A model generated the notes under the pieces. That model was not told the DNA's origin. It was given only the letters and a program-made list of their open reading frames with translations, and did no database searches. The translations under genes and the position numbers were made by a program. From positions 758-64,757 of the forward strand of contig CAXHMA010000007.1 of the NCBI GenBank assembly GCA_964017825.1: a DNA stretch of 64,000 nt, written 5' to 3'. Shown in pieces: positions 1 through 30,845 of the stretch. Each line of letters starts with the position of its first letter. The stretch's first letter is position 1. Source of the DNA: an uncultured Alphaproteobacteria bacterium (lineage in GTDB: Bacteria > Pseudomonadota > Alphaproteobacteria > RF32 > CAG-239).

Positions 1-68
1 ATCAGTTACTGTAAAAATGCGTATAAATAATTTAGCAAAAGTTTTACGTGGTCATAGTAACAAACCGC

Positions 69-97
69 TTGCCAAACCGTAAGTACACGCTTATAAT
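69..97 (+). promoter_or_regulatory. sigma70-type promoter of the first secreted-paralog gene
   Basis: TTGCCA (69-74), a 17-nt spacer, then TATAAT (92-97), 24 nt upstream of ATG 122. The same ~60-bp cassette recurs at 1337-1398. Confidence 0.5.
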
Positions 98-121
98 AAG
101 GCATAATTTGAGGAGAAAACT

Positions 122-796
122 ATGAAAAAATTATGCCTTATCGTTTTGTTGTGTTTTTTTGCCGTAATCGCAAAGGCTGTTGAACGGCCGTATTTGAAAG
201 TTGACTGCGTGCCGGAACTGAGCTTTTTTGAAGTACAGTTGTTACAGTTTGAGCAGATTCCGAATAAAGAAAGTTTTTTAGACAAATCAAATTTTATCGG
301 CAGCTCGGAATATAAGTTTTTAAAAGAAAAATACGGCATTATACATGAATACGGGTTTGTACGCGATATTCCCCGTACTCCCGATGATAACTATATGACA
401 AAAGAATGCGTCATCGGCGAAGATAAGTACACAATTCATATTGACCACTGGGGAACGACAATATCCAAGGGAGATATTGTCTTGGCAAAAGAATTGTTTT
501 TTGATTCGGCGTGGACAGATTGGATACTTTACCGTTTGATATATAATGCAAAACAGCAGAAATTTTTAGTGTCCGGCATGTTTACTTTTAATCTGCCGAT
601 ACTGAATTTTTCTTTTTCCACCAAAGAGGGGAAAGTTCTTGATGAGAATGTTATTAAGGCAAAAGGGGCGGAACTGGAAGAAAAAATTATTCTAAATAAG
701 AATAAAAATGAGAAAGAAGTTTACCTTTACCGTTACGCTCCTGATTTTACGCCGAAAGTGATATATCTTGGAGACCGAACGGAGGAATATGAGTGA
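122..796 (+). CDS. secreted protein, VDC[VL]PEL-motif paralog family (copy A1)
   Basis: 224-aa ORF with a gaggag SD upstream and signal peptide MKKLCLIVLLCFFAVIAKA. A near-identical paralog lies at 2513..3187. Confidence 0.7.
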   Translation: MKKLCLIVLLCFFAVIAKAVERPYLKVDCVPELSFFEVQLLQFEQIPNKESFLDKSNFIGSSEYKFLKEKYGIIHEYGFVRDIPRTPDDNYMTKECVIGEDKYTIHIDHWGTTISKGDIVLAKELFFDSAWTDWILYRLIYNAKQQKFLVSGMFTFNLPILNFSFSTKEGKVLDENVIKAKGAELEEKIILNKNKNEKEVYLYRYAPDFTPKVIYLGDRTEEYE

Positions 797-830
797 AAAA
801 TTGTATTTTGCTTTGTAAAGTAGAGGAAGC

Positions 831-1337
831 ATGATGAAAATTTATAAATTGGCAGCGTTGTTCTTCATATTATCGTATCCGGCAGAAGCCGTCAGCATAA
901 ACGGATATGTGTCGGATGAAGATTATTTTGAAACGATTGACGACGAAGAGGAAAAAGCCAACTTAAAACAGATTGAAGAAGCTTTTGAAGCATGCGAAGG
1001 ACAAAATGGCGATAATATAACAGAAACAGAAGATTGGAAAATAATAGAGGAAGAGATGCATAAAAATTTCCGTAATTCATATGAATGTTATAAAAATGTT
1101 GTATTCCGTCTGATAGACACGTTTCAGCCGCGCGTTGCCGATGAAGTAAAAAAAGATTTTCAAGCGTATTTGGATGCATACGACAAAATGCAATACAATC
1201 AATATTATATGCAGGATGCCTGCCGCGGCAGTTGCGGTACAATCATTGAGGACTATATTGTCGTAGACAGACAAATTATGATTAAAAATGTTGCCAAGAA
1301 TTATATTGCGGCCGTTTCCGGCTATGTCAACATGTAA
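831..1337 (+). CDS. secreted hypothetical protein
   Basis: 168-aa ORF with an N-terminal signal peptide (MMKIYKLAALFFILSYPAEA) and an acidic, Cys-containing mature part. No family recognised. Confidence 0.6.
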   Translation: MMKIYKLAALFFILSYPAEAVSINGYVSDEDYFETIDDEEEKANLKQIEEAFEACEGQNGDNITETEDWKIIEEEMHKNFRNSYECYKNVVFRLIDTFQPRVADEVKKDFQAYLDAYDKMQYNQYYMQDACRGSCGTIIEDYIVVDRQIMIKNVAKNYIAAVSGYVNM

Positions 1338-1345
1338 CAAAACGC

Positions 1346-1374
1346 TTGCCAAACCATAAGACAGCGCTTATAAT
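1346..1374 (+). promoter_or_regulatory. sigma70-type promoter, second copy of the paralog cassette
   Basis: TTGCCA (1346-1351), a 17-nt spacer, then TATAAT (1369-1374), followed by the same aggagaaaac SD leader as at 110-120. Confidence 0.5.
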
Positions 1375-1398
1375 AAGGCATAATTTGAGGAGAAAACC

Positions 1399-2502
1399 AT
1401 GAAAAAATTATGCCTTATTGTTTTGCTGTGTTTGGTTGCGATAACGGCACATGCCGAGACCGGCTGGTTCGGAGGGACGTTTTTTCGGGTTGATTGTCTG
1501 CCGGAACTGCAAAGTATTGATATTCACGTTAATGATGTTACCCGTTTTGATGATTATGACTTTACGGAAGAAAATCGTTTGAAATGGCTCAAAAATAATT
1601 ACTTTACTTTTGAAAATGAAGATAAGCGCGATATTGAGGCGGAAACGACATGCAAATTCAAAGACGGGATTTATACGATACAGTTTCGCAGTATATACCA
1701 AGCATCAAACACCGTCAGCGTAACAATCAAAAAAGATGAAAAAACGCTTTTAGATGATATTATCATTTATGACCAATGGTCTCTTCATCATATTCTAACG
1801 CCGATATTGAGATTTAATGTACAAAAACATATAACTGAAGCGTTCAGCATGGTTTATGCAGAGGCTATGGCTGACCGTTTGGCGTATATTTATTTACCTT
1901 TTTCTGATGACACGGCAGTGCAAAAAATATTGGAACATCCCGAGAAATGGGAAAAGGAAAATTATTTAGCAGATGATGACAGTAAAGTATTGATTGTGCA
2001 TTGTGATGAGTTTATGGAACATGTGGAAATACAGCTCACCCGTATTAAAGATAAAAACATCAAAACAATGCTTAATGAAAAAGCCGAAGAATTAGCTGAA
2101 AAAGGGATTTATGCGTTTGAAACAATAAATGCGCCCGAAATTTACCAAACCACATGTTCATTTGCAGGTAATACATATGAAATAAAAGTTGATAAAAAGA
2201 CACAACTGACGTTATCAATCAATGAAACGCCGTTAATTAATGACGTACGTTTATATGAACCCGAACGAAATGAAGTCATTACTTATTTGAGATACCTTGC
2301 CAAAGCAGATTTACTGCAAAAGCATGATTCTGTACAATTAGTCTGGTGGGATAAAAATAAGCGGCAATTTAAATACAATCGTCTGCCTTCACAAAACGAC
2401 TGGTACGATTATGATAAAAATAAGCGCTTATGGAGGCTGGAAAATATGAGTGACTTCTATGATATGGAGAAAGACATATGCTCTATGGTTTGGTGCGATT
2501 GA
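1399..2502 (+). CDS. secreted protein, two-module member of the VDC[VL]PEL family
   Basis: 367-aa ORF with signal peptide MKKLCLIVLLCLVAITAHA. It has FRVDCLPELQ near the N-terminus and a second related module (LIVHCDEFMEHVEIQL) mid-protein. Confidence 0.7.
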   Translation: MKKLCLIVLLCLVAITAHAETGWFGGTFFRVDCLPELQSIDIHVNDVTRFDDYDFTEENRLKWLKNNYFTFENEDKRDIEAETTCKFKDGIYTIQFRSIYQASNTVSVTIKKDEKTLLDDIIIYDQWSLHHILTPILRFNVQKHITEAFSMVYAEAMADRLAYIYLPFSDDTAVQKILEHPEKWEKENYLADDDSKVLIVHCDEFMEHVEIQLTRIKDKNIKTMLNEKAEELAEKGIYAFETINAPEIYQTTCSFAGNTYEIKVDKKTQLTLSINETPLINDVRLYEPERNEVITYLRYLAKADLLQKHDSVQLVWWDKNKRQFKYNRLPSQNDWYDYDKNKRLWRLENMSDFYDMEKDICSMVWCD

Positions 2503-2512
2503 GGAAAACCCC

Positions 2513-3187
2513 ATGAAAAAATTATGCCTTATTGTTTTGCTGTGTCTTTTTGCCGTAACTGTAAAGGCTGTTGAATGGCCATATTTGAAAGTTGACTGCG
2601 TGCCGGAACTGAGCTTTTTTGAAGTACGATTATTAGAGTTTGAGCAGATTCCGAATAAAGAAAGTTTTTTAGACAAATCAAATTTTATCGGCAGCTCGGA
2701 ATATAAGTTTTTAAAAGAAAAATACGGCATTATACATGAATACGGGTTTGTACGCGATATTCCCCGTACTCCCGATGATAACTATATGACAAAAGAATGC
2801 GTCATCGGCGAAGATAAGTACACAATTCATATTGACCACTGGGGAACGACAATATCCAAGGGAGATATTGTCTTGGCAAAAGAATTGTTTTTTGATTCGG
2901 CGTGGACAGATTGGATACTTTACCGTTTGATATATAATGCAAAACAGCAGAAATTTTTAGTGTCCGGCATGTTTACTTTTAATCTGCCGATACTGAATTT
3001 TTCTTTTTCCACCAAAGAGGGGAAAGTTCTTGATGAGAATGTTATTAAGGCAAAAGGGGCGGAACTGGAAGAAAAAATTATTCTAAATAAGAATAAAGAT
3101 GAGGGTGAAGTCTACCTTTACCGTTACACTCCTGATTTTACGCCGAAAGTAATAGATCTTGGTGACCGAACAGGAGAATATGAGTGA
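2513..3187 (+). CDS. secreted protein, VDC[VL]PEL-motif paralog family (copy A2)
   Basis: Internal ATG at 2513 of ORF 2450..3187, preceded by a gagga SD. The product begins MKKLCLIVLLCLFAVTVKA. About 460 bp are identical to copy A1. Confidence 0.7.
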   Translation: MKKLCLIVLLCLFAVTVKAVEWPYLKVDCVPELSFFEVRLLEFEQIPNKESFLDKSNFIGSSEYKFLKEKYGIIHEYGFVRDIPRTPDDNYMTKECVIGEDKYTIHIDHWGTTISKGDIVLAKELFFDSAWTDWILYRLIYNAKQQKFLVSGMFTFNLPILNFSFSTKEGKVLDENVIKAKGAELEEKIILNKNKDEGEVYLYRYTPDFTPKVIDLGDRTGEYE

Positions 3188-4089
3188 AAAATTTATTTAT
3201 CTCTCTGTTATCTCTCCTCAGCCTTATAAGCTCCGATGTTCAGGCGGCGGCGCAATATGATGAGGTTTTGCGGGTCAGCTGTCTGCCGGAGATGAAAGTC
3301 TTCCGCGCCGAAACGCTTGACGTTTGGAACGAACGATTGAACGAAAAGCCGGCTTTATTGAAAGATAACGGTTTGTATTATTGGGAAAGGTTATCGCTTG
3401 AAAAAAGGGCTTTTGAAACGCCTCTTGATTATGAAATTTCATGCGTAATCGACGGCATTAATTATCAGATGAGTTTTTACGATTTGGTTCTGAATAAAAA
3501 TTCGGACGATTATACCAAAGGCGTTATTTTGAAAGCTGACGGAAAATATATCGGGGATTTAAGTCCTCTGGGCACAACAAGAGATTACAGTTATGATAAG
3601 TTGGAAATTTCAGGCAACAATATATTAATATCAGGAGACGGATATTCAGAGCAGCGCTGTTATCACAATTATCGCGTTCCTTTTCCTGGCGAAAATAAAA
3701 GTTATACTTTCAATACTTTGCCAAGAAGCGAGGAAATCCTGCCGGAATATAATGTGGCAGAGCTTATTTGTTATCCGGATTTGGGAATTGCCGGAACACG
3801 TTTACATACTAATGAAGAAACAGTAAAATCGGCGGACAATTATAAATTGATAAAAGATAATCCTGAATTTAAATGCGGTGATATACGTATAACATTTCAA
3901 AACAACCGATTGGTGAAGGTTTATAAAAAAGATGCGCTTATTAAAGAAGTCGCGCTAAATGACAAAAACCGACAGACATACAGCATAACATATCAAGAAG
4001 ATGCAAACGAAGTACATACCAAGTCTTTTGACATAGATGACATTAAACAAAAATGTCAAAGTTCTTATTTGGAAGAACAAAAACCATGA
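3184..4089 (+). CDS. secreted protein, divergent member of the same family
   Basis: 301-aa ORF whose GTG start overlaps the stop of the previous gene. It has a signal peptide ending VQA and the motif LRVSCLPEMKVF. Confidence 0.6.
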   Translation: MKNLFISLLSLLSLISSDVQAAAQYDEVLRVSCLPEMKVFRAETLDVWNERLNEKPALLKDNGLYYWERLSLEKRAFETPLDYEISCVIDGINYQMSFYDLVLNKNSDDYTKGVILKADGKYIGDLSPLGTTRDYSYDKLEISGNNILISGDGYSEQRCYHNYRVPFPGENKSYTFNTLPRSEEILPEYNVAELICYPDLGIAGTRLHTNEETVKSADNYKLIKDNPEFKCGDIRITFQNNRLVKVYKKDALIKEVALNDKNRQTYSITYQEDANEVHTKSFDIDDIKQKCQSSYLEEQKP

Positions 4090-12870: not shown

Positions 12871-13389
12871 ATGTCAACAATTTGTTACGAAATAGATAAA
12901 GATTCAAAAGCAATGTTAATGGAAAAATTTCCGCCTAAATATCCGGAAGCCAAATACGACCATATTACCATTTGTATGGGAGGGCTCGGAGCTCAAAAAC
13001 CTGAACCGGCAGAAAAGATTGAGGTCGTCGGAACGGCAGACGATGGCAACGGAATAGAAGTTCTTATTGTTAAAGTTAATGATACGGCCCTGCGTAAAGA
13101 CGGAAAACCCTGGCATGTAACAGGAAGCTATGATCCGTCTAAAAATGCACCTGCCGCATTTGATGTTTTTGCCAAACCGGGCAAAGAAAAGGAAAAACCA
13201 TACAGACCCGCAACCTCAAACGGTTTTTTGGCGCAAGTCTTGGATAAAGACGGACACCCCAAAGCAACAGGCAATCCTGATTGGAAAGTTGAAATGTTTG
13301 ATAAACCGATTGAAATTCATACGCACCCGAAAGTGCAGTACGATGTCATGGAATTAAATAAAATGAAAGAAAAAGGAATATCATTTTAA
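12871..13389 (+). CDS. 2H-phosphoesterase-like protein (two HxTx motifs)
   Basis: 172 aa after an SD-like gaggaa. It has DHITIC and WHVTGS, i.e. two H-x-T-x tetrapeptides as in the LigT / cyclic phosphodiesterase superfamily. The assignment rests on motifs only. Confidence 0.5.
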   Translation: MSTICYEIDKDSKAMLMEKFPPKYPEAKYDHITICMGGLGAQKPEPAEKIEVVGTADDGNGIEVLIVKVNDTALRKDGKPWHVTGSYDPSKNAPAAFDVFAKPGKEKEKPYRPATSNGFLAQVLDKDGHPKATGNPDWKVEMFDKPIEIHTHPKVQYDVMELNKMKEKGISF

Positions 13390-13488: not shown

Positions 13489-13842
13489 ATGACTCGGAAT
13501 AAAGAAATAAAATGCACGGAGACATTTAACGTATTTTGGAAAAAATATGCCGTCGGTAATTTATATATCACTGAAAATGAGGAATATATATTCAAATATA
13601 ATTTAGAAAACGTTGAAAAAGCTAAAAAAGAAGGCTTCACCTACATAATCGGTTTTAAGGATATCAATGAAGAATACAGGTCAGAAAAACTGTTTCCTTT
13701 CTTTTCATCAAGAATTCCGTCTGCAAACAGACATAACCTGCAAAGTATTTTGCGGGATTTAAATATTGAAGAATATAACGAGTGCCGACTCTTGAAAAAG
13801 ACCGGAGGAAAACTTTTCACTGACAATTATGAAGTAAGATAA
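13489..13842 (+). CDS. HipS-like protein (stand-alone HipA N-terminal subdomain)
   Basis: 117 aa after an SD ggagag. It is colinear with the first ~100 aa of HipA: VGNLY...YIFKY, LFPFFSSRIPS (cf. FNFFDNLLPD) and LLKKTGGKLFTDNYEV. Confidence 0.65.
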   Translation: MTRNKEIKCTETFNVFWKKYAVGNLYITENEEYIFKYNLENVEKAKKEGFTYIIGFKDINEEYRSEKLFPFFSSRIPSANRHNLQSILRDLNIEEYNECRLLKKTGGKLFTDNYEVR

Positions 13843-13862
13843 AATTCAGCCGGAGATATTAC

Positions 13863-16388
13863 ATGATAGATGTAAGCGATTATGAAAAAATAGATGATGA
13901 AAACAGAGGCGTTAACGAAAAACTCTGGATAAATGTTGAAGGGCGGCCGGCATTGTTCAAAAGAACTCAGATAAGAGATAACGGGACCCATACAAATGCA
14001 CATTACGGAGAAGCTTTTGTTTCTCAAATGTGCCGCCTGCTTGATTATAAATGTGCTGAAGTTGAAATTGCCCAAAGAAACGGAGAAATAGGTTGTATAA
14101 GCTATAGCTTCTTAAAAGAAGATGATGAATTGGTTGATTTTGTATCTTTGCTTCAAAATATCAGACCGTCATTTGATTCTAAAAAAATGTTGGTTCCGGA
14201 AACAAATGAAACTTATTCAATTCCTTTAATTTTAGAAGCCTTGGAAGAAGAAACAAGTTCAGAAGAAGAATTCAAAAACCTGAAAAGAGATTTTTTAAAA
14301 AGCTGCATAATAGATTCATTAATAGAACATTATGACAGAAATCCGTCTAATATCTCTGTCATACGAAACAACGGGCATATCACATTATCCCCTATGTTTG
14401 ATAACGGCACTTCCCTGAATCTTTCAATCCCCGCAGATGTAATTAAAGAACACGAAAATGATGAAAAATGGTCTAAACTGCTCAGAGAAAAAAACAGATC
14501 AAAAATTGGCGTTGAAGGAGAAAAATACAGCAGTTATGATAAACTTCTGGACTATATTTTAAGCAACTGTTACGAAGATGTTGCAGATTTTATAAGCGTC
14601 ATACAAGAGAAACTTACCAAAGAAAATATTGCCCGAATATTAGAACATGATGATTATGCTGACATGGATAATGTTTTCAAAGAGTTAATTATTAAAAAGA
14701 TTACCGATAATGTAAGAGATTTAGCAGAAAAAAGTAAGGAATATGAAAATAAATATACCGTTGAACAATATATGAAAACCCCGAATACATATGAATATTT
14801 AAAGGAAAAAGTTAAAACCCGGGATTTGCAAATCATTATTCCTGAAATAAACGCCTGTATCGATTGCCCTCAAAGAAACCCCTATCATATCTATTCTGTC
14901 AGTGATTATATGTTCCGCTGCATTGAACAAATAAACAATATAGAAGAAATTGCACGGGAAAACGGAATAGAATTAAAAATTTCCGATAAAAATAAAAGTT
15001 TAATACAATGGGCTGTCTTGTTTAACGAATTGGGAAAACCGCACGCAAGAGAAGAAATCGGTGATGCTGACGGAAATATAAGAGATACATTCAGAAATTA
15101 TAGTGAATACGGAGAAGAAATAGCTAAAAATTTAATGGAAAGATTAAATTTTTATGAAACAGATAAAAAAATTGTAACAGCATTAATATCTTCTCATCAG
15201 AGAAGATCTTTAGAGACGGATAACCCGATAAAAAAATTAATAAATGAAATCGGAGAAAGAAATATAGATTTATATTTCGGAATGAAATTAGCTGAAATAA
15301 AATCTAAAAATCCCGAAATAGAAAAGGAAGCACTGTTAAAATTAAAAATTTTAAAGGAAAGAATAGATAAAACAATAGCTGATGATAATAGAGAAATTAT
15401 TAAAGTATTGCCTTTTAACGGGGAACAAATGAAAAAATTAGGATTGCAGGGACGGCAAATCGGAGAAATTTTTAACTTATTGGCACGGTTTGTAAAATCT
15501 AATCCTGATATATATGCTTACTATAAATCAAGAGGACATCTGCAAAAATATAAGAAAAATATTGCCAGACTGTCTCAAGAATATGCAAAAGAGATAAAAA
15601 ACAGAGAAAAACGCAAACAAAAGGAGGCCAAAATGGAAAAAGTGGAACTAATTCCGACAAATGAAACCTCGGAGTATTATCGAGAACATGTTGCCGGTCG
15701 TCATGGTAAAGGTTCAACGGCTATCGGTTCAAAACTGTTAGATGATGTTTCCGATGATTATATACTTGAGGTGTTAAGCAAAACAGATAACGCATATCAA
15801 GAAGCTATCGACGAAAAAGGAAAACCCGGAAGAATGGTTTTTGCGGTTCAAGCGGACAGACCTATCGGAACAAATGCCTTACTGCCCAAAGAGAATTTAG
15901 ATAATAATTCTGTTTTTTCAACAACAAGAGATATTGGAACAAGAGGAGAAGCACAAGTATTGGTTGCGCTTATCTCAAAAGATGAAATGCCTAAGACAAA
16001 TATAGCCCATGTTATTATGGGACATTACGGTCCGACAGGAAAAGCCGGTATTTACACAATGATTTGCGGTGATGAAGGTATGCCTATGCCGAGAGCTGTT
16101 GATGAAAATACGCCTCCGGAAGCTGTCAGATTTAATGAAGAATGTCAAAAATACTGGGATAGTCATGTTTTTTTGATTACACCTGAGGAATTAAAGGCAA
16201 ATATTGCACAATTGCAGGCTAACGGGATATCTGCAACCAAACAAGAATTGTTTTTAAGAGCCTTTGAGGCAAAAGGAGAAAAATCTCCGATTGCAAAACC
16301 ATATCAAGCATATGTTTCTCCCAATGCTGTTAAATTGCAGGTAAAGTCTTCTAAAAATTTTGTTGCAGCAAAAGACGGCCGTGAGTAA
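13863..16388 (+). CDS. HipT/HipA-like Ser/Thr kinase fused to a degenerate CCA-adding-enzyme HD/tail module and an unknown C-terminal domain
   Basis: 841 aa.
- **Residues ~1-300 (kinase):** HipA-core motifs GVNEKLW..ALFK, HYDRNPSNIS and SPMFDNGTS.
- **Residues ~325-590:** colinear with the HD and tail region of class II tRNA nucleotidyltransferases (NPYHIYSVSDY, LFNELGKPHA, LISSHQRR, VLPFNGEQMKKLGLQGRQIGEIF), with HD replaced by NE.
- **Residues ~591-841:** unassigned. Confidence 0.7.
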   Translation: MIDVSDYEKIDDENRGVNEKLWINVEGRPALFKRTQIRDNGTHTNAHYGEAFVSQMCRLLDYKCAEVEIAQRNGEIGCISYSFLKEDDELVDFVSLLQNIRPSFDSKKMLVPETNETYSIPLILEALEEETSSEEEFKNLKRDFLKSCIIDSLIEHYDRNPSNISVIRNNGHITLSPMFDNGTSLNLSIPADVIKEHENDEKWSKLLREKNRSKIGVEGEKYSSYDKLLDYILSNCYEDVADFISVIQEKLTKENIARILEHDDYADMDNVFKELIIKKITDNVRDLAEKSKEYENKYTVEQYMKTPNTYEYLKEKVKTRDLQIIIPEINACIDCPQRNPYHIYSVSDYMFRCIEQINNIEEIARENGIELKISDKNKSLIQWAVLFNELGKPHAREEIGDADGNIRDTFRNYSEYGEEIAKNLMERLNFYETDKKIVTALISSHQRRSLETDNPIKKLINEIGERNIDLYFGMKLAEIKSKNPEIEKEALLKLKILKERIDKTIADDNREIIKVLPFNGEQMKKLGLQGRQIGEIFNLLARFVKSNPDIYAYYKSRGHLQKYKKNIARLSQEYAKEIKNREKRKQKEAKMEKVELIPTNETSEYYREHVAGRHGKGSTAIGSKLLDDVSDDYILEVLSKTDNAYQEAIDEKGKPGRMVFAVQADRPIGTNALLPKENLDNNSVFSTTRDIGTRGEAQVLVALISKDEMPKTNIAHVIMGHYGPTGKAGIYTMICGDEGMPMPRAVDENTPPEAVRFNEECQKYWDSHVFLITPEELKANIAQLQANGISATKQELFLRAFEAKGEKSPIAKPYQAYVSPNAVKLQVKSSKNFVAAKDGRE

Positions 16389-16653: not shown

Positions 16654-17047
16654 TAAAACGTCTTCCCGAAACATGGGATTGATTAAAATATATATAATTA
16701 CACGTTCTTTAGCTATTTAACGAGCCTTTCTTTTTATACCTTTTTTCCAATTATGCTTTGTTTAAACTATTATAAATTTCATCTACAAAAATACCCATTC
16801 CTCGTTAATCTTTGCTTAATTTCAAAAAATGAACTTCAATTTTTCTTTGTTTACGCACATCATCTAAAACAAGCGTATCTTTGTATGATCTTTGCAATCG
16901 GTCAATAACATTTTCTTAGTAGTTTTATAAAGAGTTTTAGTGATTAGCGGCCTTTCGCAACAATCGTCTATTATCTTCTAATTATTTCTTGCAAAAAAAC
17001 ACTATCAGAGATAGTATTCAACTAAATTGAGCAGAAAGAACATTAAA

Positions 17048-19087
17048 ATGAGCCGATATTTTTACGCAGATACAATTGAAAATTTTGTAAAAAGTAATCA
17101 TAACTATATCTTAGGAACGCTAGTAAAAAATTCGCCATTTGATATTACGAATCTACAAAGAAACGCATGGGAAGAAGAAATTAATTTGCTGAGTTCTATT
17201 CTGCAAAATGAAAAGGGACAAATTATTTTTGAATATAACATTCCCCGGTTGGGTAAGCGAATAGATGTCGTTTTACTGATAAGCGGAATTGTTTATGCGT
17301 TAGAATTTAAGGTTAATTCTACAGAATATTTGCGTCAAGATATAGAACAGGTATGGGATTATGCTTTAGACCTGAAAAACTTTCATGAGGCTAGCCATAA
17401 TCTGACGATTGTTCCGATTTTAATTGCTACAAATGCCCAAAACAGTTCACAGGTTCAACAATTTAGTAGCCATAATGATCTTGTTTTTGAGCCTATTTTA
17501 TGTAATTCTAGCGAACTTAACAATGTACTTCAGAAAATAAAAACCCACCACGCTGTAAATATTGATTTAAGTGTTTGGAAAAACAGCCGTTATAAACCAA
17601 CACCGACAATTATTCAGGCAGCAAGTTCACTTTATCTAAATCACTCCGTACATGATATTACTCGCACGGAGGCTTCTGGCAAAAGTTTACAGCAGACAAC
17701 AGATTTTATTTCTCAAATTATACAGTATTCTAGGAATAATCATGAGAAATCTATTTGTTTTGTAACCGGCGTACCGGGTGCTGGAAAGACATTAGTAGGT
17801 TTAAATGTTGCTGTCCAACAATTCAATCAAGGTGATCTAGCGGTATATTTATCTGGTAATCAGCCATTGGTTGATGTTTTAACCGAAGCGTTAGCCCGGG
17901 ATAAAAAAAGACAGGAAAATGAGAAAAATCCAGAAAAGCATTATACACTCGCAGAGGCAAGACGGAACGTAAAGTCATTTATTCAAATTGTGCACCATTA
18001 CCGCAATATTTCTCTGAGCAAAATTAAAACACCAATTCGCGATGGATTATTAGAAATCGATCCAGCAAAAATTAAAAAGCACCAGGAAGATGGCTATTCC
18101 GAAGTTGAGCACGTCGCTATTTTTGATGAAGCTCAACGCGCATGGACACGACAACAGCTGGCTAATTGGTTGAGACGTAAGCAAGGTATCAAAGATTTTC
18201 CAATGTCTGAACCAGAATTTTTGATTTGGTCATTGGATTTGCGTGAGGATTGGGCCGTTATTATTTGCTTAGTTGGCGGAGGCCAGGAAATCAATACTGG
18301 TGAGGCTGGCATTTCTGAATGGCTTAGAGCTATTAATAATAACTTTTCTAATTGGAATGTCTTTATTTCTGATAAGCTTCAAGATAAAGAATATGCAACA
18401 GATGAAATTGATAAATTGCTAGAAAATAACTCTCATGTTTGGAAGAAATCTGATCTTCACCTTGCTGTATCTATGCGTTCATTCAGAGCAGAACAACTTT
18501 CTGAATTTGTACATGCACTTTTAGATTCCAACGTAGATGAAGCCCAAAAAATATGTGAATCCCTTAAAAATCGATATCCTATAGTTCTAACCCGATCATT
18601 AGATAAAGCAAAAGCTTGGCTTAAACAACAAAAGCGCGGTTCCGAAAGATATGGTATGTTAGCATCATCCCAAGCCCAACGTTTAAGACCATTATCTATC
18701 GATGTGCGTTGCAAACCAGATACGGTGCACTGGTTTTTAGATGATATTGATGACATCAGATCTTCCATGTTTTTGGAAGATGCCGCATCAGAATTTGATG
18801 TACAAGGTTTGGAATTAGACTGGACATGTATTGTTTGGGATGGTGACTTGCGACGTGAAAATAATACGTGGGGCAATTATTCATTCATAGGTAATAAATG
18901 GCAAAATATTCGTACTGAAGAAAGAAAATCTTATCAAATCAATGCTTACAGAGTTTTGTTAACGCGTGCCAGACAAGGAATGGTTATTTGTGTTCCAGAA
19001 GGAAATCCTGCGGACGGCACTCGAAATCCTGTATATTACGACGAAACGTTTGATTATCTGAAAAGCATCGGATTAGAAGTAATATAA
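17048..19087 (+). CDS. DUF2075-type (Schlafen-related) SF1 ATPase/helicase with an N-terminal PD-(D/E)xK-like module
   Basis: ORF 17027..19087, with ATG 17048 preferred as the start. The N-terminus has a GKRIDVVLL...YALEFKV nuclease-like motif. It also has Walker A GVPGAGKT, Walker B IFDEAQRAW and a C-terminal YRVLLTRARQGMVICV. Confidence 0.7.
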   Translation: MSRYFYADTIENFVKSNHNYILGTLVKNSPFDITNLQRNAWEEEINLLSSILQNEKGQIIFEYNIPRLGKRIDVVLLISGIVYALEFKVNSTEYLRQDIEQVWDYALDLKNFHEASHNLTIVPILIATNAQNSSQVQQFSSHNDLVFEPILCNSSELNNVLQKIKTHHAVNIDLSVWKNSRYKPTPTIIQAASSLYLNHSVHDITRTEASGKSLQQTTDFISQIIQYSRNNHEKSICFVTGVPGAGKTLVGLNVAVQQFNQGDLAVYLSGNQPLVDVLTEALARDKKRQENEKNPEKHYTLAEARRNVKSFIQIVHHYRNISLSKIKTPIRDGLLEIDPAKIKKHQEDGYSEVEHVAIFDEAQRAWTRQQLANWLRRKQGIKDFPMSEPEFLIWSLDLREDWAVIICLVGGGQEINTGEAGISEWLRAINNNFSNWNVFISDKLQDKEYATDEIDKLLENNSHVWKKSDLHLAVSMRSFRAEQLSEFVHALLDSNVDEAQKICESLKNRYPIVLTRSLDKAKAWLKQQKRGSERYGMLASSQAQRLRPLSIDVRCKPDTVHWFLDDIDDIRSSMFLEDAASEFDVQGLELDWTCIVWDGDLRRENNTWGNYSFIGNKWQNIRTEERKSYQINAYRVLLTRARQGMVICVPEGNPADGTRNPVYYDETFDYLKSIGLEVI

Positions 19088-19646: not shown

Positions 19647-21170
19647 ATGGCAATTGTTTCTTCACAACAAAACTATGATGATATTTTTGCAGATGATAGG
19701 TTAAATATAAAATCATTTGTGGTCGATTTTGCTCATTTGATAGAGCAAGATACATATATAGAAGGTGGTATTTCAAAGGTTTATTCGATAGCTGCCGAAT
19801 TTGGTATTGGAAAAACATTTTTCTGCGAAAAATTAAAATATGTCTTAGAGAAAGATAATGTTCAAACTATAAAAATGAATATTTGGGAAATGGACTTTTA
19901 TGAAAATCCATTAATGCCGATATTAGCAAAATTAAATGAAATTTATAAAAAAGACGGTGAAAATTTGCCTGCTAAGATTATTAATTCAACTTTAAATTTT
20001 ACAAAAAAGTCTTTAGCAGTATTATGTGAAACAGCCATTAAATCTGCTTCTAATAAAGTATTGGATGTTGATATCGCGGAGGTATGTAAAAATAATTTTG
20101 TGCCGGAAAATATTTATGACGATTTCAAAAATCATCAAGAGGCATTACAAGAACTTAAACAGTCGTTAATTAAGTGGGCAAGAGAAGATGAAAAACCGAT
20201 TGTTGTGATTATTGATGAATTGGACAGATGTCGGCCTGATTATGCGGTAAAAACGTTAGAAGTGTTGAAGCATTTCTTTGATGTATCAGGATTTGTGTTC
20301 GTTTTGGCATTAGATGAGAAGCAATTAGAGAGTTCTGTTAAATGCTTATTTGGTACAAATAATTTTGAAGGGTATAAAAGAAAATTTATTAATAATACAT
20401 TTTTGCTGCCAGTTCCTGATAGAAAAGCTTTTACCGAATTTTTATATGATAAATCAGGGATGGATACTTGGATTAAAATATTACAGGAGAAAAAACTTGA
20501 GTTAGTATTCCCTATTGACATATATAATGTATACTGTTGTGCTTATTCGTATAGCGACTATGGTAATTTTGAAAATGAAAGTAAGGCCAAAAAATTTAAT
20601 CAAACTCAGACATCTTCCGAAATTATTAAATGTTATTTTGCTGCGTACAGTGACTATTTTGGTTTTACTTTAAGAGAAATGGAACAGGTTTTTGAGCGTT
20701 TAATTATATTTATAAAGCAAATTTCTTCTAGCCAAGAAATATTTTCACCTGATTTAGCTGTTTTTTTAGTATGTTTGCATGAATTTGACATTAATACTTA
20801 TAATAAAATACGTTTTGGATTTACCAATTTTGAAACAGTAATATACGACAAAGATAATATGAGTTTATTAACTTTAATCCCAACTTTTTATAAAGGAAGT
20901 CATCTCTTAAATAATACATTCAATCGGACGTTTGCTCCTGAAATAATTCTTATCAATGGATATTCTGGTTATTGTGAAGAAAATCCTTCAACATCGTCTC
21001 CACTTCTGAGAGAAATTGGAGATAATGTTGACAGATTTTTTATTAAAGATGTATCAAAATTATGTCAAGAAGCAATATACCTTCGCAATATTGACATTCA
21101 AAAATTAGATATGACAAGAATTAAAGAGGTATATTTTGCCCATATGGATTTTATCTCTCATTTTGAATAA
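19647..21170 (+). CDS. KAP-family P-loop NTPase
   Basis: 507 aa with Walker A EFGIGKTFF and Walker B plus the KAP signature VVIIDELDRCRPDYAVKTLEVLKHFF. Confidence 0.8.
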   Translation: MAIVSSQQNYDDIFADDRLNIKSFVVDFAHLIEQDTYIEGGISKVYSIAAEFGIGKTFFCEKLKYVLEKDNVQTIKMNIWEMDFYENPLMPILAKLNEIYKKDGENLPAKIINSTLNFTKKSLAVLCETAIKSASNKVLDVDIAEVCKNNFVPENIYDDFKNHQEALQELKQSLIKWAREDEKPIVVIIDELDRCRPDYAVKTLEVLKHFFDVSGFVFVLALDEKQLESSVKCLFGTNNFEGYKRKFINNTFLLPVPDRKAFTEFLYDKSGMDTWIKILQEKKLELVFPIDIYNVYCCAYSYSDYGNFENESKAKKFNQTQTSSEIIKCYFAAYSDYFGFTLREMEQVFERLIIFIKQISSSQEIFSPDLAVFLVCLHEFDINTYNKIRFGFTNFETVIYDKDNMSLLTLIPTFYKGSHLLNNTFNRTFAPEIILINGYSGYCEENPSTSSPLLREIGDNVDRFFIKDVSKLCQEAIYLRNIDIQKLDMTRIKEVYFAHMDFISHFE

Positions 21171-21181: not shown

Positions 21182-22042
21182 TTATAATTCATTGAACCAT
21201 TTTTCGTTTATTTCGACTTGTTCAATAATTTTAACACCCAGGTTGAATTCTTTTAATTTATTGGCTAGATCATGCCCATCAATTAGGTCGATAATTAAAG
21301 CACCATCCCTCCGAGCTTCATCTTTGGCATCTTTGGAAAATACCCCTGTTGTAATAATTAAACCTTTATCTGCCCGTCCCATTATAGCGCCACGAAAATC
21401 TCTAATCACAGATGAAGGAACTGTTCCTTCATATCTTTTACATTGAAAATAAATATTGAAGGAAACGAAGCCAGCAATTTTGAATACACCTTTGCCATCT
21501 ATTCCTCCATCACCTGATTTCTTCGTTACTTCAACATTGTCAAAACCAGCTTCTCTTAATAACCTCTGCGCAAGTCTCTCAAATGCAAAGGGATTCATTT
21601 TCTTCAGAGTCGCAATAAGCCTATCTTCCCATTTTATTTCTTCTGTTGTTTCTTCAATAAAATTACAAGCACTATCTTTTTCTTGTAAAGGGATATTTGC
21701 CGGTTCTTCTGCATTTGTGGAATGTTCGCAGCTTTTTACAAATTTTTTTACCTCATTAATGTTAATCTTATCTGTTTTTAAACCTTTGGGAGTTAATGCC
21801 CAAACGCCACGAGTGGAATTAGATAAGATACCATATACTTTAAGGTATGATTTAGCCCAAGCAACGCGATAATCTAAAACAGAACGGTTTCCCCCATTAT
21901 AAAGTTCAGAGGCTTCTTCATCAGTAAGTTTAAGAATTTTACTTATTTCAGAAAGTATTTCATCATTTTTTGCAGATCCGCCCAAGTTTTTTATTGCTTC
22001 AATGACGGGATTGAAGAGCTTATCATATGTAGGTATTGGCAT
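21182..22042 (-). CDS. mrr: Mrr-family type IV restriction endonuclease
   Basis: 286 aa with an Mrr_N winged-helix start (PTYDKLFNPVIEAIKNLGG) and an Mrr_cat core (FERLAQRLL, GDGGIDG, FQCKRY). Confidence 0.75.
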   Translation of the reverse strand: MPIPTYDKLFNPVIEAIKNLGGSAKNDEILSEISKILKLTDEEASELYNGGNRSVLDYRVAWAKSYLKVYGILSNSTRGVWALTPKGLKTDKININEVKKFVKSCEHSTNAEEPANIPLQEKDSACNFIEETTEEIKWEDRLIATLKKMNPFAFERLAQRLLREAGFDNVEVTKKSGDGGIDGKGVFKIAGFVSFNIYFQCKRYEGTVPSSVIRDFRGAIMGRADKGLIITTGVFSKDAKDEARRDGALIIDLIDGHDLANKLKEFNLGVKIIEQVEINEKWFNEL

Positions 22043-22716: not shown

Positions 22717-24018
22717 TTGCTGAGTGCTAACATGGAAAATAGAAAAAAGAACAAAAAAGCTAAATTCACAACATTTAAACACTTTTATAAGCGGCTATAC
22801 GAAGAGGAAAATATTCGTAAGGCGTGGAATGCCGTATATGCTAATTGTACAAGTTCCTCATCACTGAGAACAAGAAATGACGCAAAAGATTTTAAATCTC
22901 AAGAAGTCGTTAATCTCAAGCGATTAAAAGATAGTTTAGCAAGCAAAAAATTTAACTTTTCTGTCAAAGCAATTCCACAAGAACGATTAGGTAAAGATCC
23001 TCGCCCTCTGGTTAATATAACTATTGAGGGACGCATTGTACAAAGATGTATTCTAAATGTTCTTCAATCTCACAGTGGAATAAAAAAATATATGCATAAT
23101 AACCCTTTCAGTTTTGGTGGTATTAAGCATAGAGGAGTTAAGGATGCCGTTGAAGCGGTAATAAGAACATCTTCTGAAAAAGGTTACACCCATTTTCTTA
23201 CATCTGATATAGGCGACTTCTTCACAAGAATAAAATCTGATATAGTTATTGGTAAAATAGAAGAGTTTTGCAAGGCAGATCAAGATTTTATTAATATTCT
23301 TCAAAAAGCAATTCATCTTGAAATAGAAAATATGAAGGAAATTGAGAAGAAATACCCTAAAATTCTTTATAAATACAATTATACAGATGAAGGTGTGCCT
23401 CAAGGTAGTTGCTTATCACCATTATTTGGTAATATGTACCTTTATGAATTTGATAAAATAATGAACAGTAGTAGTGATGTTTCTTGCTTTAGGTATATTG
23501 ATGATATTATTATAATTGGTAATAGCTTTAAGAATGTTGAAAACTCTTTTCATAAAAAAGCATTACCGATTTTAGAAAAGCTTGGTTTAACGGCCTATAT
23601 ACCAGGCAAAAGCAATAAAGCAGCGCACGGAGAACTAGATAGCAGTTCTGGTTTCAATTATTTAGGCGTCAACATAACAAAAAATCAAATAAAACCTAGT
23701 AAAGATGCTTTTGAAAAAATAATAAAAGAAATCAAAGATTTAATTCTTGAGGCATTGAATTTTGACGCAATAAAACCTGTAAGCTTATACAAGACATTGG
23801 ATTTAATTGATAGAAAGCTCAAAGGATGGGGGAATCACTATTCTTTTTGTAATGCTAAAGTTGAGATGAATGTTCTAGATATAACTATGGATAAGTTGTT
23901 AAGTGAATTTATAGAAAAATATAACAAAAAACTTGCAAAACTTAAACCTAGCCATATTAGGGAAAAGATAGGTATACAAAGAGTTACCAACTGTAAGCAT
24001 GACCCAATTATTAAATGA
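22717..24018 (+). CDS. stand-alone reverse transcriptase (group-II-intron-like / UG-class), no endonuclease domain
   Basis: 433 aa from TTG 22717 (alternative ATG at 22732). RT motifs:
- RPLVNITIEGRIVQRCILNVL;
- SFGGIKHRGVKDAVEAV;
- TSDIGDFFTRI;
- GVPQGSCLSPLFGNMYLYEFD;
- the catalytic box FRYIDDIIIIG;
- FNYLGVNI;
- a maturase-like thumb, LKGWGNHYSF. Confidence 0.85.
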   Translation: MLSANMENRKKNKKAKFTTFKHFYKRLYEEENIRKAWNAVYANCTSSSSLRTRNDAKDFKSQEVVNLKRLKDSLASKKFNFSVKAIPQERLGKDPRPLVNITIEGRIVQRCILNVLQSHSGIKKYMHNNPFSFGGIKHRGVKDAVEAVIRTSSEKGYTHFLTSDIGDFFTRIKSDIVIGKIEEFCKADQDFINILQKAIHLEIENMKEIEKKYPKILYKYNYTDEGVPQGSCLSPLFGNMYLYEFDKIMNSSSDVSCFRYIDDIIIIGNSFKNVENSFHKKALPILEKLGLTAYIPGKSNKAAHGELDSSSGFNYLGVNITKNQIKPSKDAFEKIIKEIKDLILEALNFDAIKPVSLYKTLDLIDRKLKGWGNHYSFCNAKVEMNVLDITMDKLLSEFIEKYNKKLAKLKPSHIREKIGIQRVTNCKHDPIIK

Positions 24019-24440
24019 CTAAATCATCTCAACAATTTTCTTCTGGGCGTCGGTGTTGTATTCAATATAGCGTTGGGTGGTGGTGAAGATGGAATGTCCG
24101 GCCAGCATGCGGATATCGTTTAAGGTTCTACCAGCAAGGCTGATATTTTTAGCTGCGGCAGTAATGAATGTTTTGCGGCCGCTATGCTTCAAAACCGATT
24201 TCTTTATATAAATTATAAAAGAAATTAACGATTGCCTGCGGACAGGGCTTATTGTTGCGTTCTGTCGTAATAATCCGGTTCATCAAATTAAAATGCTCAT
24301 TCTTCTGTTGCATGCTCAGCAATTCCACCCAATCTTTGTGCAAAGGAATAATCCGTCCAAATTGTTTGCCCTTGGATGCTTTATTAATAAGGTTAATTTC
24401 TTGGATTAGGTTTCCTTCCGATCGCAAACGGATACGATAA
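24019..24440 (-). pseudogene. tyrosine recombinase/integrase remnant (N-terminally truncated, frameshifted)
   Basis: The reverse strand of 24019-24180 reads GRKTFITAAAKNISLAGRTLNDIRMLAGHSIFTTTQRYIEYN...*, which is the C-terminal catalytic box. The upstream part, in the frame of ORF 24182..24691, is out of frame and ends in a TAG at 24182. Confidence 0.65.
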
Positions 24441-24469
24441 GCGATAATGTAATACGCAGTTTTGAAAAA

Positions 24470-25511
24470 ATGCGCAAAGAGGGAAAATGGGCACACCATG
24501 CACCAGTCGGCTATAAAAATGTAAGGGATGCCAATGGTAACAGCGATATTGTGTTGGATGAGGACAACCATTTCATCATTACGCGGTTGTTTAAGGAATT
24601 TTCGATTGGCACCTATAATCTTGAGCAAATAACGCGAAAAGCCGCAGATTTCGGGCTTAAGATGAAGACCAGTAAGAAGCTTCATAAACAAACTATCCGC
24701 GGAATATTAAGCAACCGTTTTTATGTCGGGGAAATGTATAGCGGCGGGCATTATTATCCGCATTGTTATCCGCGGCTGACGGACAGTTATACGTTTGAAC
24801 GGTGTCAGGAAATTTTGGAAGGTAAGGCAAATCATAAGGTACAAAAGCATGAATATGTATTAAAGGATTGGTTCGTTGTAAAAAATGCAGTGGTGTTGTT
24901 TCGACAGATATCAATGTACATCCGGCGAAAAAGAAGGGCGGAGAAAAAATCGTTTATAAATACCTTTTTTGTCCGCAATGCGGCGGCTATCGGACGAAAG
25001 AGAAAAATGAGGTTAAAAAGTGAAAGAGGCGCTAAAAACGCTTAAAAACATGCCTAAAAGCGTTGTTGAAAAATTGATTGCCTGTTTGGATGAAGAAATT
25101 TACGAAGACCATAAAATAGAAATAGAAGCCAAGAAGGCCTTGGACAGGCAGATTGCCGGTTTTGCAGAAAAGGAAAGCCGGTTGATAGACTTGTTTACGG
25201 AAGGCAGTATTACACAGAATTTATATACAAAAAAACTAACCGAGTACAGACAGGATAAGAAAAAACTGGAAGAGCGATTAACCGACTATAGTCATCTGAC
25301 TAAGCAAGGTCTAATAACGTTAAAATATTTGGCTAGCTTGCTTTTGATGTCAGATCGGATATGGAATTTTCTGAACAACGACAAAAAACAGCAGGTTTTA
25401 AAATTACTTTGTTCGGAAATTTTATTAGATGGTAAAAATGTAGATATTTCAATAAGAAAGCCTATTCTAGCACTGGCTAAAATAGGCTCTTGTCAAGTCT
25501 GGCTGGAGTGA
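24470..25511 (+). pseudogene. large serine recombinase remnant (catalytic domain missing, at least 2 frameshifts)
   Basis: Three consecutive frames carry its parts:
- the recombinase domain (HAPVGYKNV...RFYVGEM);
- a zinc ribbon (LVRCKKCSGVV...FCPQCGGY);
- the coiled-coil C-terminus (ORF 25020..25511).
No resolvase N-terminal domain is present. Confidence 0.7.
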
Positions 25512-27788: not shown

Positions 27789-28610
27789 TTATATTGAAAG
27801 CTTGTTTAATCCGTAGTCGACAAGTTCACCGCCGTAATAGACGATATTGGAATTGCCGTATTTCAGTTTTTTAGTGTAAAATGTGATGGGTTTTCCCTGA
27901 TATATCCATTCATAGCGGTCAAAGAATTTCTCGTCTTTAACATTAAATTGCGCGTTCTCGCTCATAAAACGGATAATCTTGTCCGTATCCTGCTTAGTCA
28001 GCGCGTTTTCCATAATCCAACGGGAATACGGGTTATCAGCATTTCCGTTTCTTGTGTTGAGGTTAAGCGTTTTCAGACTGACCGTTTGAATATTCGGATA
28101 AATGTCAAGATATTTTTTAATCTCCTCGAGATAGTCGTTAAAACTTTTGTTTTTCATCAAAACATAATTTAAGCGGATGTTGGCTTGCTTAAATAAATCG
28201 CTGTTAATATAGTCTTTATCATATCCGAGAGTCATCATATCTTTTTTAGAATCAAAATCCACCCGGGTAATTTCAATAATAAAATCATTTTTGATTAAAT
28301 CGAATTTATCTTTTTCATAAAAAATATTGCCTGAAGATTGAAAACGCTTTTCATCAAAAATATTGACTTTATCAGTTGTCTCAACCACGCTTTTTATCGT
28401 CTGATAACTATGCAGCGAAGGCTCTCCGTTCCCACAAAAAATAAAATATCTGAAATTGATGCCTTTATCTTTCAAATAACTGAGTTTTTCCTCCAACTGT
28501 GCGAGTTTATCGTCAACAATGGGCCATTGCGTTATTTTAGCGGTGCAGTACGGGCAGTGTTTGTTGCACTTAAAAGATGATAAAATTAACTCAAATTCTT
28601 TATATTTCAT
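27789..28610 (-). CDS. radical SAM enzyme, unknown substrate
   Basis: It has the CNKHCPYC (CxxxCxxC) cluster near the N-terminus and the GNGEPSL motif. The start ATG 28610 (MKYKEF) overlaps the end of the upstream gene. Confidence 0.75.
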   Translation of the reverse strand: MKYKEFELILSSFKCNKHCPYCTAKITQWPIVDDKLAQLEEKLSYLKDKGINFRYFIFCGNGEPSLHSYQTIKSVVETTDKVNIFDEKRFQSSGNIFYEKDKFDLIKNDFIIEITRVDFDSKKDMMTLGYDKDYINSDLFKQANIRLNYVLMKNKSFNDYLEEIKKYLDIYPNIQTVSLKTLNLNTRNGNADNPYSRWIMENALTKQDTDKIIRFMSENAQFNVKDEKFFDRYEWIYQGKPITFYTKKLKYGNSNIVYYGGELVDYGLNKLSI

Positions 28611-29124
28611 GGCAAACAACCTCCTTTAAAACAGATTGGATTAAAGCAGACAAATCATTATTGTCGCAATAGGAATAAATTTTGGTTTGGGGACTTTGCC
28701 GCAAAGCATCGGCAATTGCAAACCAGTATTCCGATTTTATTTGGTATGCGGACTCTTCTTCTTTGTATAAGATGACGATTTCTTTTTTAAACAAAAGCGC
28801 CCACTCAAGCTCCACAATGGAACCCACCGAAAAGCTCTCATTAAACACCGCGAAAAAAACGTCGCAATTTTTAACCGCGGCTAATTCGGCGCGAAGAACA
28901 GTTTTACAGTCATTTGATGTAAACTTGCCGTTAGAGGCCTGCTCGCAATAGAACGGCCCCGAATATATGAACCGATTGTCAACAATTAAGTCCTTTGTAT
29001 AAAATGTCAGAAGTCGGGAACTGCCTAAAATATGCGCTCTGTAATCATTTTCCAACGATTGAACCAATGATAAGCATGGCTCTTTAATCCGGTTAAACTT
29101 ACCTGAAAAATATATTTTTTTCAT
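28600..29124 (-). CDS. nucleoside 2-deoxyribosyltransferase-like (NDT-fold) protein
   Basis: Internal ATG 29124 (MKKIYFSGKF) overlaps the pnuC stop as TAATG. The later acidic motif VGSIVELEWAL resembles the NDT catalytic Glu region. Confidence 0.55.
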   Translation of the reverse strand: MKKIYFSGKFNRIKEPCLSLVQSLENDYRAHILGSSRLLTFYTKDLIVDNRFIYSGPFYCEQASNGKFTSNDCKTVLRAELAAVKNCDVFFAVFNESFSVGSIVELEWALLFKKEIVILYKEEESAYQIKSEYWFAIADALRQSPQTKIYSYCDNNDLSALIQSVLKEVVCHEI

Positions 29125-30770: not shown

Positions 30771-30845
30771 TGGCTGGGGCGGCTGGATTCGAACCAACGA
30801 ATGTCGGCACCAAAAGCCGATGCCTTACCACTTGGCGACGCCCCA
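30771..30845 (-). tRNA. tRNA-Gln (anticodon UUG), CCA encoded
   Basis: The reverse complement is TGGGGCGTCGCCAAGTGGTAAGGCATCGGCTTTTGGTGCCGACATTCGTTGGTTCGAATCCAGCCGCCCCAGCCA. It folds by hand into a cloverleaf with a 7-bp acceptor stem, anticodon loop TTTTGGT and T-loop TTCGAAT. Confidence 0.95.

Follow-up and report, generated by a model that had tools for sequence, protein, structure and literature searches.

What would a HipA-family kinase do with half of a CCA-adding enzyme? This question is raised by a gene pair in a 64,000-nucleotide (nt) stretch of DNA from an uncultured alphaproteobacterium (contig CAXHMA010000007.1 of assembly GCA_964017825.1, positions 758 to 64,757 of the forward strand). 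We refer to this whole stretch as the window, and coordinates are positions within it. The first gene of the pair encodes a HipS-like protein of 117 amino acids (aa). The second encodes an 841-aa protein in which a predicted CtkA/HipA-fold Ser/Thr kinase is followed by what appears to be the complete, catalytically dead body and tail of a class II tRNA nucleotidyltransferase and then by a further domain, here called X. By analogy with characterized Hip systems, the pair would encode a translation-arresting kinase that is neutralized by its HipS-like partner, in the manner of a toxin-antitoxin or abortive infection system, with the dead CCA-enzyme scaffold acting as a tRNA adaptor. We give this reading a probability of roughly 0.5. 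An earlier note on this DNA, made from its letters alone, had proposed much of this architecture, and we evaluated it using profile searches, structure prediction, and comparison with related loci. In what follows, handles beginning with L denote the compared loci and those beginning with P denote protein clusters.

The gene pair and its HipS-like product

Both open reading frames (ORFs) lie on the forward strand, and their positions, their sizes, and the 20-nt gap between them are exactly as the earlier note had them. The HipS-like gene (13489..13842, +) is followed by the spacer (13843..13862, +) and then by the 841-aa ORF (13863..16388, +), which begins 20 nt past the end of its neighbor. 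Read directly from the sequence, the spacer carries a GGAG Shine-Dalgarno sequence for the kinase gene, 9 nt before the ATG; likewise, an AGGAG ribosome-binding site is found 8 nt before the ATG of the 117-aa ORF. Given the 20-nt spacer and the separate Shine-Dalgarno sequence before each start, the two genes are read as a tight bicistron. A scan for promoters and terminators was uninformative, since the number of sites did not exceed that of shuffled sequence. The short ORFs flanking the pair look like junk, and no further credible ORF is present. We also found no HipB-type helix-turn-helix (HTH) gene, in agreement with the earlier note: the 172-aa and 198-aa proteins encoded upstream have no Pfam hit and no HTH match.

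The 117-aa protein had been described as the equivalent of HipA's N-terminal subdomain 1, and that identity is supported by two hidden Markov model (HMM) profiles that score past their curated cutoffs, namely Pfam Couple_hipA (E=5.5e-7; 30.5 bits, cutoff 22.5) and TIGR03071 (E=6.4e-8; 32.7 bits, cutoff 27.8). The PADLOC model PDC-M03B also matches (E=2e-30), over its N-terminal half only (positions 21-115 of 232). We considered the idea that the lost C-terminal half of PDC-M03B was transferred onto the kinase and rejected it, as the extra residues of the kinase protein are instead the CCA-enzyme body and X.

In a BLAST comparison of the neighboring genes at six independent locus types, five had a HipS-like homolog (54-79% identical) immediately upstream of the kinase. 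More distant homologs are located upstream in two of three further Clostridia loci (L018 and L020), with one gene in between. The 117-aa protein is presumed to serve the kinase as its antitoxin or regulator.

The kinase domain

Residues 1-290 of the 841-aa protein (13863..14732, +) constitute the putative kinase domain. The HipA-core motifs reported in the earlier note are present at its N terminus, with GVNEK starting at residue 16, ALFK at residue 30, DRNPSN at residue 158, and SPMFDNG at residue 176. The Gly-rich loop (G16-K20) lies at the extreme N terminus of the protein, and no Ser or Thr occurs in residues 10-22, which include the stretch D-E-N-R-G-V-N-E-K-L-W. K33 is the ATP-binding Lys, the catalytic motif H156-Y-D158-R-N-P-S-N163 is encoded at nt 14328-14351 (+), and the Mg-binding D180-N-G is encoded at nt 14400-14408 (+). 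Residues G16, K20, K33, H156, Y157, D158, N160, N163, and D180-L185 are invariant across homologs (the key residues G16, K20, K33, D158, N163, and D180 were checked in 17 of them). Since the catalytic residues are invariant, the kinase looks catalytically competent. The domain is acidic, with an isoelectric point (pI) of about 4.8.

The PADLOC model PDC-M03A covers the domain at E=3.7e-44 (model positions 6-286 of 293). To compare folds, we used an AlphaFold2 model of the 841-aa protein built with 17 homologs, in which the predicted local distance difference test score (pLDDT) is >85 across residues 1-590. The best Foldseek match of the N-terminal domain is CtkA of Helicobacter pylori (E=1.7e-10; template modeling [TM] score of about 0.8; root mean square deviation, 3.2-3.4 Å), and the next matches are HipA (3TPV; E=3e-6) and the HipT proteins of Legionella and Escherichia coli (8EZS and 7AB3). 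CtkA is also the sole solved kinase reached by the sequence profile of the family (E=2e-6). On the evidence of the model, residues 1-290 are predicted to be a CtkA/HipA-fold Ser/Thr kinase. The earlier description of the domain as a HipT-like kinase needs a correction: the HipA-superfamily fold is recovered by the matches to CtkA, HipA, and HipT, and the nearest relatives are CtkA and the short clade-XI/PDC-M03 kinases rather than HipT proper.

A dead CCA-enzyme body and tail behind the kinase

The region behind the kinase, residues about 300-590 (14760..15632, +), had been aligned motif by motif with the HD domain and tail of class II tRNA nucleotidyltransferases. Our searches bear this out and extend it to the whole body and tail. 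In a phmmer search of the Protein Data Bank (PDB), the single sequence matches only the A-adding enzyme of Aquifex aeolicus (3WFO; E=2.4e-6; query residues 300-448). With a profile built from 11 family members, the alignment covers residues 228-506 of the 525 residues of 3WFO (E=3.5e-16), a match that spans its whole C-terminal half, including the tail segment LP-x-x-G-x-x-x-x-x-LG-x-x-G-x-x-IG. Foldseek recovers 3WFO as well (E=1.8e-4); both the sequence profile and the predicted structure thus return a CCA-type enzyme rather than an unrelated helical family or a generic HD domain. NCBIfam GlnD models give weak matches in the same region.

Class II enzymes are built of a head, neck, body, and tail, and the 3' end of the tRNA goes into a pocket between head and neck (Tomita and Yamashita, PMC3925840). 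We could not detect a nucleotidyltransferase head or neck in the window protein: the alignment with 3WFO starts at residue 228, and no nucleotidyltransferase family matches across the 841 aa. Because the match covers the C-terminal half of 3WFO only, the tRNA-gripping half appears to have been kept and the polymerase half to be absent.

The HD-type core of this module has lost most of its active site. The first HD histidine (DEH in 3WFO) is replaced by Tyr (SDYMF), the motif LFNELGKP (residue 386; nt 15018-15041, +) stands in place of FHDIGKP, which turns the HD dyad into N388-E389, and the last Asp of the set (LSIADA) is replaced by Glu. As the earlier note had claimed for the dyad and the head, then, the former is replaced and the latter is missing. 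Only one of the four HD metal ligands remains, which leaves the H...HD...D set incomplete. Given these replacements (Y, N-E, and E), phosphohydrolase activity of the module is unlikely, and the loss of three of four ligands makes a binding role likelier than hydrolysis. Some relatives (P0018, P0020, and P0022) keep H-D and are recognized by Pfam HD (E=4e-9), yet they lack the first His; Pfam HD is detected only in members that retain H-D. Among the few retaining this dyad is a frameshifted or disrupted copy in a Clostridia locus (L010 5572-7551), in which the kinase gene is split into ORFs of 135 and 516 aa.

The tail of the window protein (residues 451-590) is strongly basic (pI 9.8; charge +12), as it is in most family members (pI 9.4-9.8; charge +6 to +13), which lends weak support to RNA binding. 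From its sequence, we interpret the module as a complete, catalytically dead body and tail of a class II tRNA nucleotidyltransferase, the half of the enzyme that is predicted to grip tRNA. To our knowledge, the reuse of this body and tail as a noncatalytic module is an unusual case.

Distribution and variants of the family

The combination of kinase and CCA-enzyme body is rare. A search of 5.8 billion proteins yielded only 26 clusters, and the family occurs at 4 loci among about 185,000 species-representative genomes, all of them metagenome-assembled genomes (MAGs) of gut Clostridia. Across both searches, most occurrences are in MAGs from the gut. On IMG/VR viral contigs we found neither the family nor X, just distant kinase-only relatives (25-28% identity). 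Judging from the sequences compared, the conserved unit is the HipS-like gene, the kinase, and the CCA-enzyme body; X is excluded from it because most family members lack X.

What is added to the conserved unit varies. P0001 and P0002 carry X, P0003 has a DHH-like module (Pfam DHH, E=8e-4, which misses the cutoff), and the P0024 group has an unrelated domain of roughly 150 aa. P0019 and P0021 have an extra, intact HD domain at the N terminus and a long C-terminal region with two HxT motifs. Namely, P0019 is a 1,350-aa giant (L008 6001-10062) consisting of the intact HD domain, the kinase, the dead CCA-enzyme body, and the long C-terminal region. Since this giant version comes without an upstream HipS-like gene, a single self-contained protein may here make up the whole system. 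At the P0016 locus, an intact HD domain is found in a separate 337-aa protein, which shares homology with the dead module (E=1e-11); the next gene encodes a 109-aa protein. We asked whether X or the 172-aa family is akin to the C-terminal regions of P0019 and P0024; hhalign probabilities of 1-4% indicate that they are unrelated. Downstream of the Hip operon at one of the Clostridia loci (L010 10483-12568), two adjacent proteins of 388 and 311 aa are composed almost wholly of GYD-K/R-x-GY(D/N) repeats.

Domain X

The earlier note had ended the 841-aa protein with an "unknown 250-aa domain." An extra domain is indeed present, and it can now be seen as an autonomous, recently fused, and RNA-associated unit that is absent from most family members. 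Domain X (residues about 605-841; 15675..16388, +) comprises about 240 aa with an alpha/beta structure, is modeled confidently as an independent domain (pLDDT 92.7), and belongs to a family of 60 representative homologs recovered by an exhaustive HMMER search. Many of these are stand-alone proteins of about 250 aa. In others, X is C-terminal to double-stranded RNA (dsRNA)-binding motifs (P0032 and P0035), a PHP domain (P0040), or regions that are either uncharacterized or similar to the 172-aa protein described below.

The closest relatives of the kinase stop at about 612-643 aa, without X, while the product of a stand-alone X gene (P0127) shares 86% identity with residues 578-840 of the window protein. 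Together, these two observations indicate a recent fusion of X to the kinase. The fusion is not an artifact, as the 841-aa product is present on two contigs and P0002 (873 aa) is an analogous fusion with a divergent X.

The family conserves the motifs H-x4-H, GSK, PGR, VGTDAL, RD-GT, GPYGPTGKxGIYT, PFP, and YW-x-H-x-FL-TP-E. Searches of Pfam, PHROGs, PADLOC, the sequences of the PDB (with the single sequence and with a profile), and BFVD returned nothing usable for X. In fold comparison, X comes closest to chains B/D of 5E3E, a weak match (E=6e-3; probability 0.96; TM 0.25/0.48), and matches to HigB2-type folds are weaker than this one. These chains belong to a Yersinia kristensenii CdiA-CT toxin of the RNase A superfamily (PMC5435912). 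On this weak fold match, the conserved H19, H24, GSK, and H177 of X could correspond to the His/Lys(Arg)/His set of RNase A-like/BECR RNases. An RNase-like activity of X is a lead suggested by the model. We also asked whether X could be a classical toxin paired with a neighboring immunity gene and discarded this possibility, since the stand-alone X genes keep no neighbor except a protein with a dsRNA-binding domain (dsRBD).

An upstream 172-aa protein and an association network

A conserved 172-aa gene, Y (12871..13389, +), lies 5' of the pair and is best regarded as an optional partner. Its product is 81% identical to that of its positional counterpart in the P0003 locus (L009), and a homolog of its first 86 aa forms the N terminus of P0057, where it is fused to X (E=3e-12). 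Alignment of the family reveals two invariant H-x-T motifs, D30-H31-x-T33 and H82-x-T84-x-S86, and on this basis the protein is possibly a 2H-type phosphoesterase. The assignment stays at the motif level, because neither the single sequence nor a profile matches anything in Pfam or the PDB. In alphaproteobacterial MAGs, its homologs are frequently solitary or come after a WYL regulator, which rules out an obligate three-gene system with the 172-aa gene. In one such case (L012 4021-5519), a WYL + WCX regulator immediately precedes the homolog, and an ADP-ribosylglycohydrolase and a PD-(D/E)XK protein are encoded nearby; these neighbors suggest that the 172-aa family is also part of other defense-type modules.

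The P0003 locus also encodes a 556-aa dsRBD protein whose N terminus is shared with dsrm+X fusions, and in L024, a homolog of this protein is encoded by the gene immediately upstream of a stand-alone X. Given these fusions and adjacencies, X, the 172-aa protein, the dsRBD protein, and the kinase are joined in an association network. No other members of this network were found elsewhere in the window.

Genomic context

The gene pair lies at the left edge of a stretch of low G+C content (GC), where GC is 0.28-0.42 from about 12 to 31 kb; the rest of the window is mostly at about 0.49. Downstream are genes for a 686-aa Schlafen group 3/DUF2075-type helicase (17027-19087, +), which PADLOC PDC-S41 matches nearly end to end (E=1.3e-271), and for a 507-aa KAP-family P-loop NTPase (19647-21170, +; PDC-S20, E=1.7e-69, with weaker matches to PifA and QatA). 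These are followed by a gene on the opposite strand for an Mrr_N + Mrr_cat protein (21182-22042, -), which matches type IV methyl-directed restriction enzymes as well as PDC-S02, and by one for a 433-aa reverse transcriptase (22717-24018, +). The latter matches RVT_1 (E=9e-24), RT_UG17 (DRT) (E=6e-34), and, weakly, a group II intron maturase; from these matches, it could be either an intron or a defense reverse transcriptase. With neighbors such as PDC-S41, KAP/PDC-S20, Mrr, and the reverse transcriptase, together with the low GC, the pair sits in a defense island. Phage defense by HipA-family kinases has been validated (DS-6/HipAD; PMC13092281), and PADLOC predicts a defensive role for HIRAN-HipA clusters (PMC11706625).

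Farther along the island, a 191-aa recombinase fragment (within 24182-25511, among overlapping ORFs on both strands; Pfam Recombinase, E=3e-10) looks like a decayed serine recombinase, the remnant of a mobile element. A 276-aa protein encoded beside a porin and a nicotinamide mononucleotide transporter (27789-28619, -) has a weak radical-SAM match below the cutoff (E=7e-5) and a weak pVip match (E=1e-4), and is probably not a viperin. A tRNA-Gln (UUG) gene (30771-30845, -) is located near the right end of the low-GC stretch, where GC climbs back toward the host level, and may mark the boundary of the island or the site at which it integrated. A second low-GC stretch, apart from this one, covers window positions 1-4000 (GC 0.36-0.38).

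A proposed tRNA-guided kinase and its alternatives

How might these parts work together? As in HipBST, the HipS-like protein would keep the kinase inactive until a trigger, such as phage infection, released it. The dead CCA-enzyme scaffold would grip the acceptor/T-arm "top half" of a tRNA and thereby guide the kinase to a tRNA-bound translation component. The likeliest target would be an aminoacyl-tRNA synthetase held on its own tRNA, as for HipA with GltX, which HipA phosphorylates only when tRNA is bound; phosphorylation of such a target would lead to translation arrest. In this scheme, X, the DHH-like module, the extra intact HD domain, and the 172-aa HxT protein could have an accessory role, tuning or undoing the effect as modules that bind RNA or act on its ends. 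Synthetases are established targets of related kinases: TrpS is given as the target of HipT (Table 1 of PMC8262856), and HipA phosphorylates glutamyl-tRNA synthetase (PMC13092281).

Several observations weigh against this reading. Pfam HipA_C scores below its gathering cutoff on the kinase (23.4 bits against 30.5; E=5e-5). A profile of seven HipS-like family members matches no solved HipS in the PDB by sequence, so the assignment of the 117-aa protein rests on the HMM libraries. No HipS-like gene was detected upstream of the P0019 and P0021 variants in the BLAST comparison of neighbors, and control by HipS is therefore not universal. Compared with HipBST, the window locus lacks the HipB HTH gene, and its kinase has no Ser or Thr where HipT carries the autophosphorylatable S57/S59 of its Gly-rich loop. 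Because variability of C-terminal modules is typical of sensors, the CCA-enzyme body could sense tRNA rather than present a substrate. Finally, the recurrent phosphoesterase-type partners (intact HD, DHH-like, PHP, and HxT) fit nucleic-acid-end chemistry better than protein phosphorylation.

The point about sensors leads to the alternative that survives best, which we nevertheless regard as unlikely. In this model, the dead body and tail would read the state of tRNA (damaged or CCA-less ends, phage tRNAs, or fragments) and switch the kinase on; the target of the kinase would be unrelated to the bound tRNA, and X and the other C-terminal modules would be alternative sensors. The location in a defense island suits such a role, and so does a body and tail whose core is conserved yet catalytically dead. 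The C-terminal parts do differ among close relatives (X, DHH-like, 2H-like or other, or none), as is common for sensor domains, but the body and tail are the constant part of the protein and not the variable one. Moreover, the HipS-like protein already provides a regulatory route, and since known Hip kinases act on tRNA-bound synthetases, an adaptor is the simpler role.

A second alternative, for which we see only a slim chance, takes up the phosphoesterase-type partners. The kinase occupies the position of the head and neck, and it would itself phosphorylate the 3'-terminal ribose of the tRNA, or the aminoacyl-tRNA end, and so block charging; the phosphoesterase-type modules (intact CCA-type HD, DHH-like, PHP, HxT, and perhaps X) would erase the mark. 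The order kinase-body-tail mirrors that of head/neck-body-tail, in which the head and neck hold the 3' end and the body and tail hold the acceptor/T arm, and partners of the required kind recur across the family (HD in P0016 and in P0019/P0021, DHH-like in P0003, and the PHP+X and Y+X fusions), although the phosphoesterase labels of Y, the DHH-like module, and X are weak. A parallel exists in toxSAS/CapRel toxins, which pyrophosphorylate the CCA end of tRNA and are reversed by small alarmone hydrolases. Against this stands the fact that all the characterized Hip targets met here are proteins. We know of no HipA-fold kinase that acts on nucleic acid; if the model were true, this would be the first. 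Least probable of all, and very doubtful in our view, is an RNA repair or processing cassette in which the kinase, CCA-enzyme scaffold, HxT protein, HD/DHH modules, and X would mend tRNA ends, for example after cleavage by an anticodon nuclease: the partners have a flavor of RNA-end chemistry, X is associated with dsRBD proteins, and its best, albeit weak, fold match is RNase A-like, but the loci examined lack a ligase, the fold is of the protein-kinase type, the HipS-like partner and the kinship with PDC-M03 indicate toxin-antitoxin logic, and the neighborhood is a defense island rather than one of housekeeping RNA repair.

The adaptor reading, a HipS-neutralized kinase guided by tRNA, matters beyond this locus. 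Hip kinases are a model of persistence and are now also validated antiphage effectors. A natural fusion of a Hip kinase with half of a CCA-adding enzyme predicts that the substrate is chosen by way of tRNA, or else that tRNA is the substrate. It allows a direct test of whether Hip kinases are guided to their targets by tRNA, and it offers a direct handle on the tRNA dependence of that targeting. It also exposes X, an uncharacterized and well-folded domain family tied to dsRNA-binding proteins.

Comparison with known systems

Among the closest known systems is HipBST of E. coli O127 and Legionella pneumophila, in which HipA is likewise split into a small upstream HipS-like protein and a core kinase. 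The HipT fold is matched here (8EZS and 7AB3), and the targets of HipBST are aminoacyl-tRNA synthetases. Unlike HipT, the window kinase is nearer to CtkA and carries about 550 extra residues, made up of the CCA-enzyme body, the tail, and X.

The short Hip kinases of clade XI (HipG/M/I/J, 279-321 aa; Gerdes et al. 2021) are alike in size and in their N-terminal Gly-rich loop. Two of these systems, hipJS and hipIN, pair the kinase with a HipS-type partner instead of an HTH antitoxin, as does the window locus, but their HipS or HipS-HIRAN gene is downstream of the kinase, whereas the HipS-like gene is upstream here. They are likely the same as the PADLOC candidate system PDC-M03. That system calls for a full-length M03B protein (232-262 aa), while the partner in the window is of half length and lacks the C-terminal half of M03B; its M03A-type kinase is also about 550 residues longer. 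PDC-M03 as modeled therefore does not describe this locus. CtkA (JHP0940; PDB 3AKJ/3AKK) shares the catalytic motifs, FDRHNGN and FDCGS compared with HYDRNPSN and FDNGT in the window kinase. It is a single-domain protein of 325 aa, and its solved chain contains neither the CCA-enzyme body nor X.

The earlier note had supposed this architecture to be uncharacterized. Indeed, a term search of the main text of the Hip catalog of Gerdes et al. (2021) finds mention of neither an HD domain nor a nucleotidyltransferase, and full-text literature searches for HipA with a CCA-adding or HD domain or a tRNA nucleotidyltransferase returned no such fusion.

The middle module of the protein finds its counterpart in class II tRNA nucleotidyltransferases (Aquifex 3WFO-3WFS), with which it is homologous over about 280 residues of body and tail, including the HD-type core and the shared tail segment G-x-x-I-x-x-LG-x-x-G-x-x-IG. 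In contrast to these enzymes, the module in the window has no polymerase-beta head and neck, has mutated HD ligands, and stands behind a protein kinase. By its residues, the protein is predicted to be neither a nucleotidyltransferase nor an HD hydrolase. Overall, the logic of HipS and kinase is already known from other Hip systems, while the joining of such a kinase to a headless CCA-enzyme body is a rare and previously undescribed architecture.

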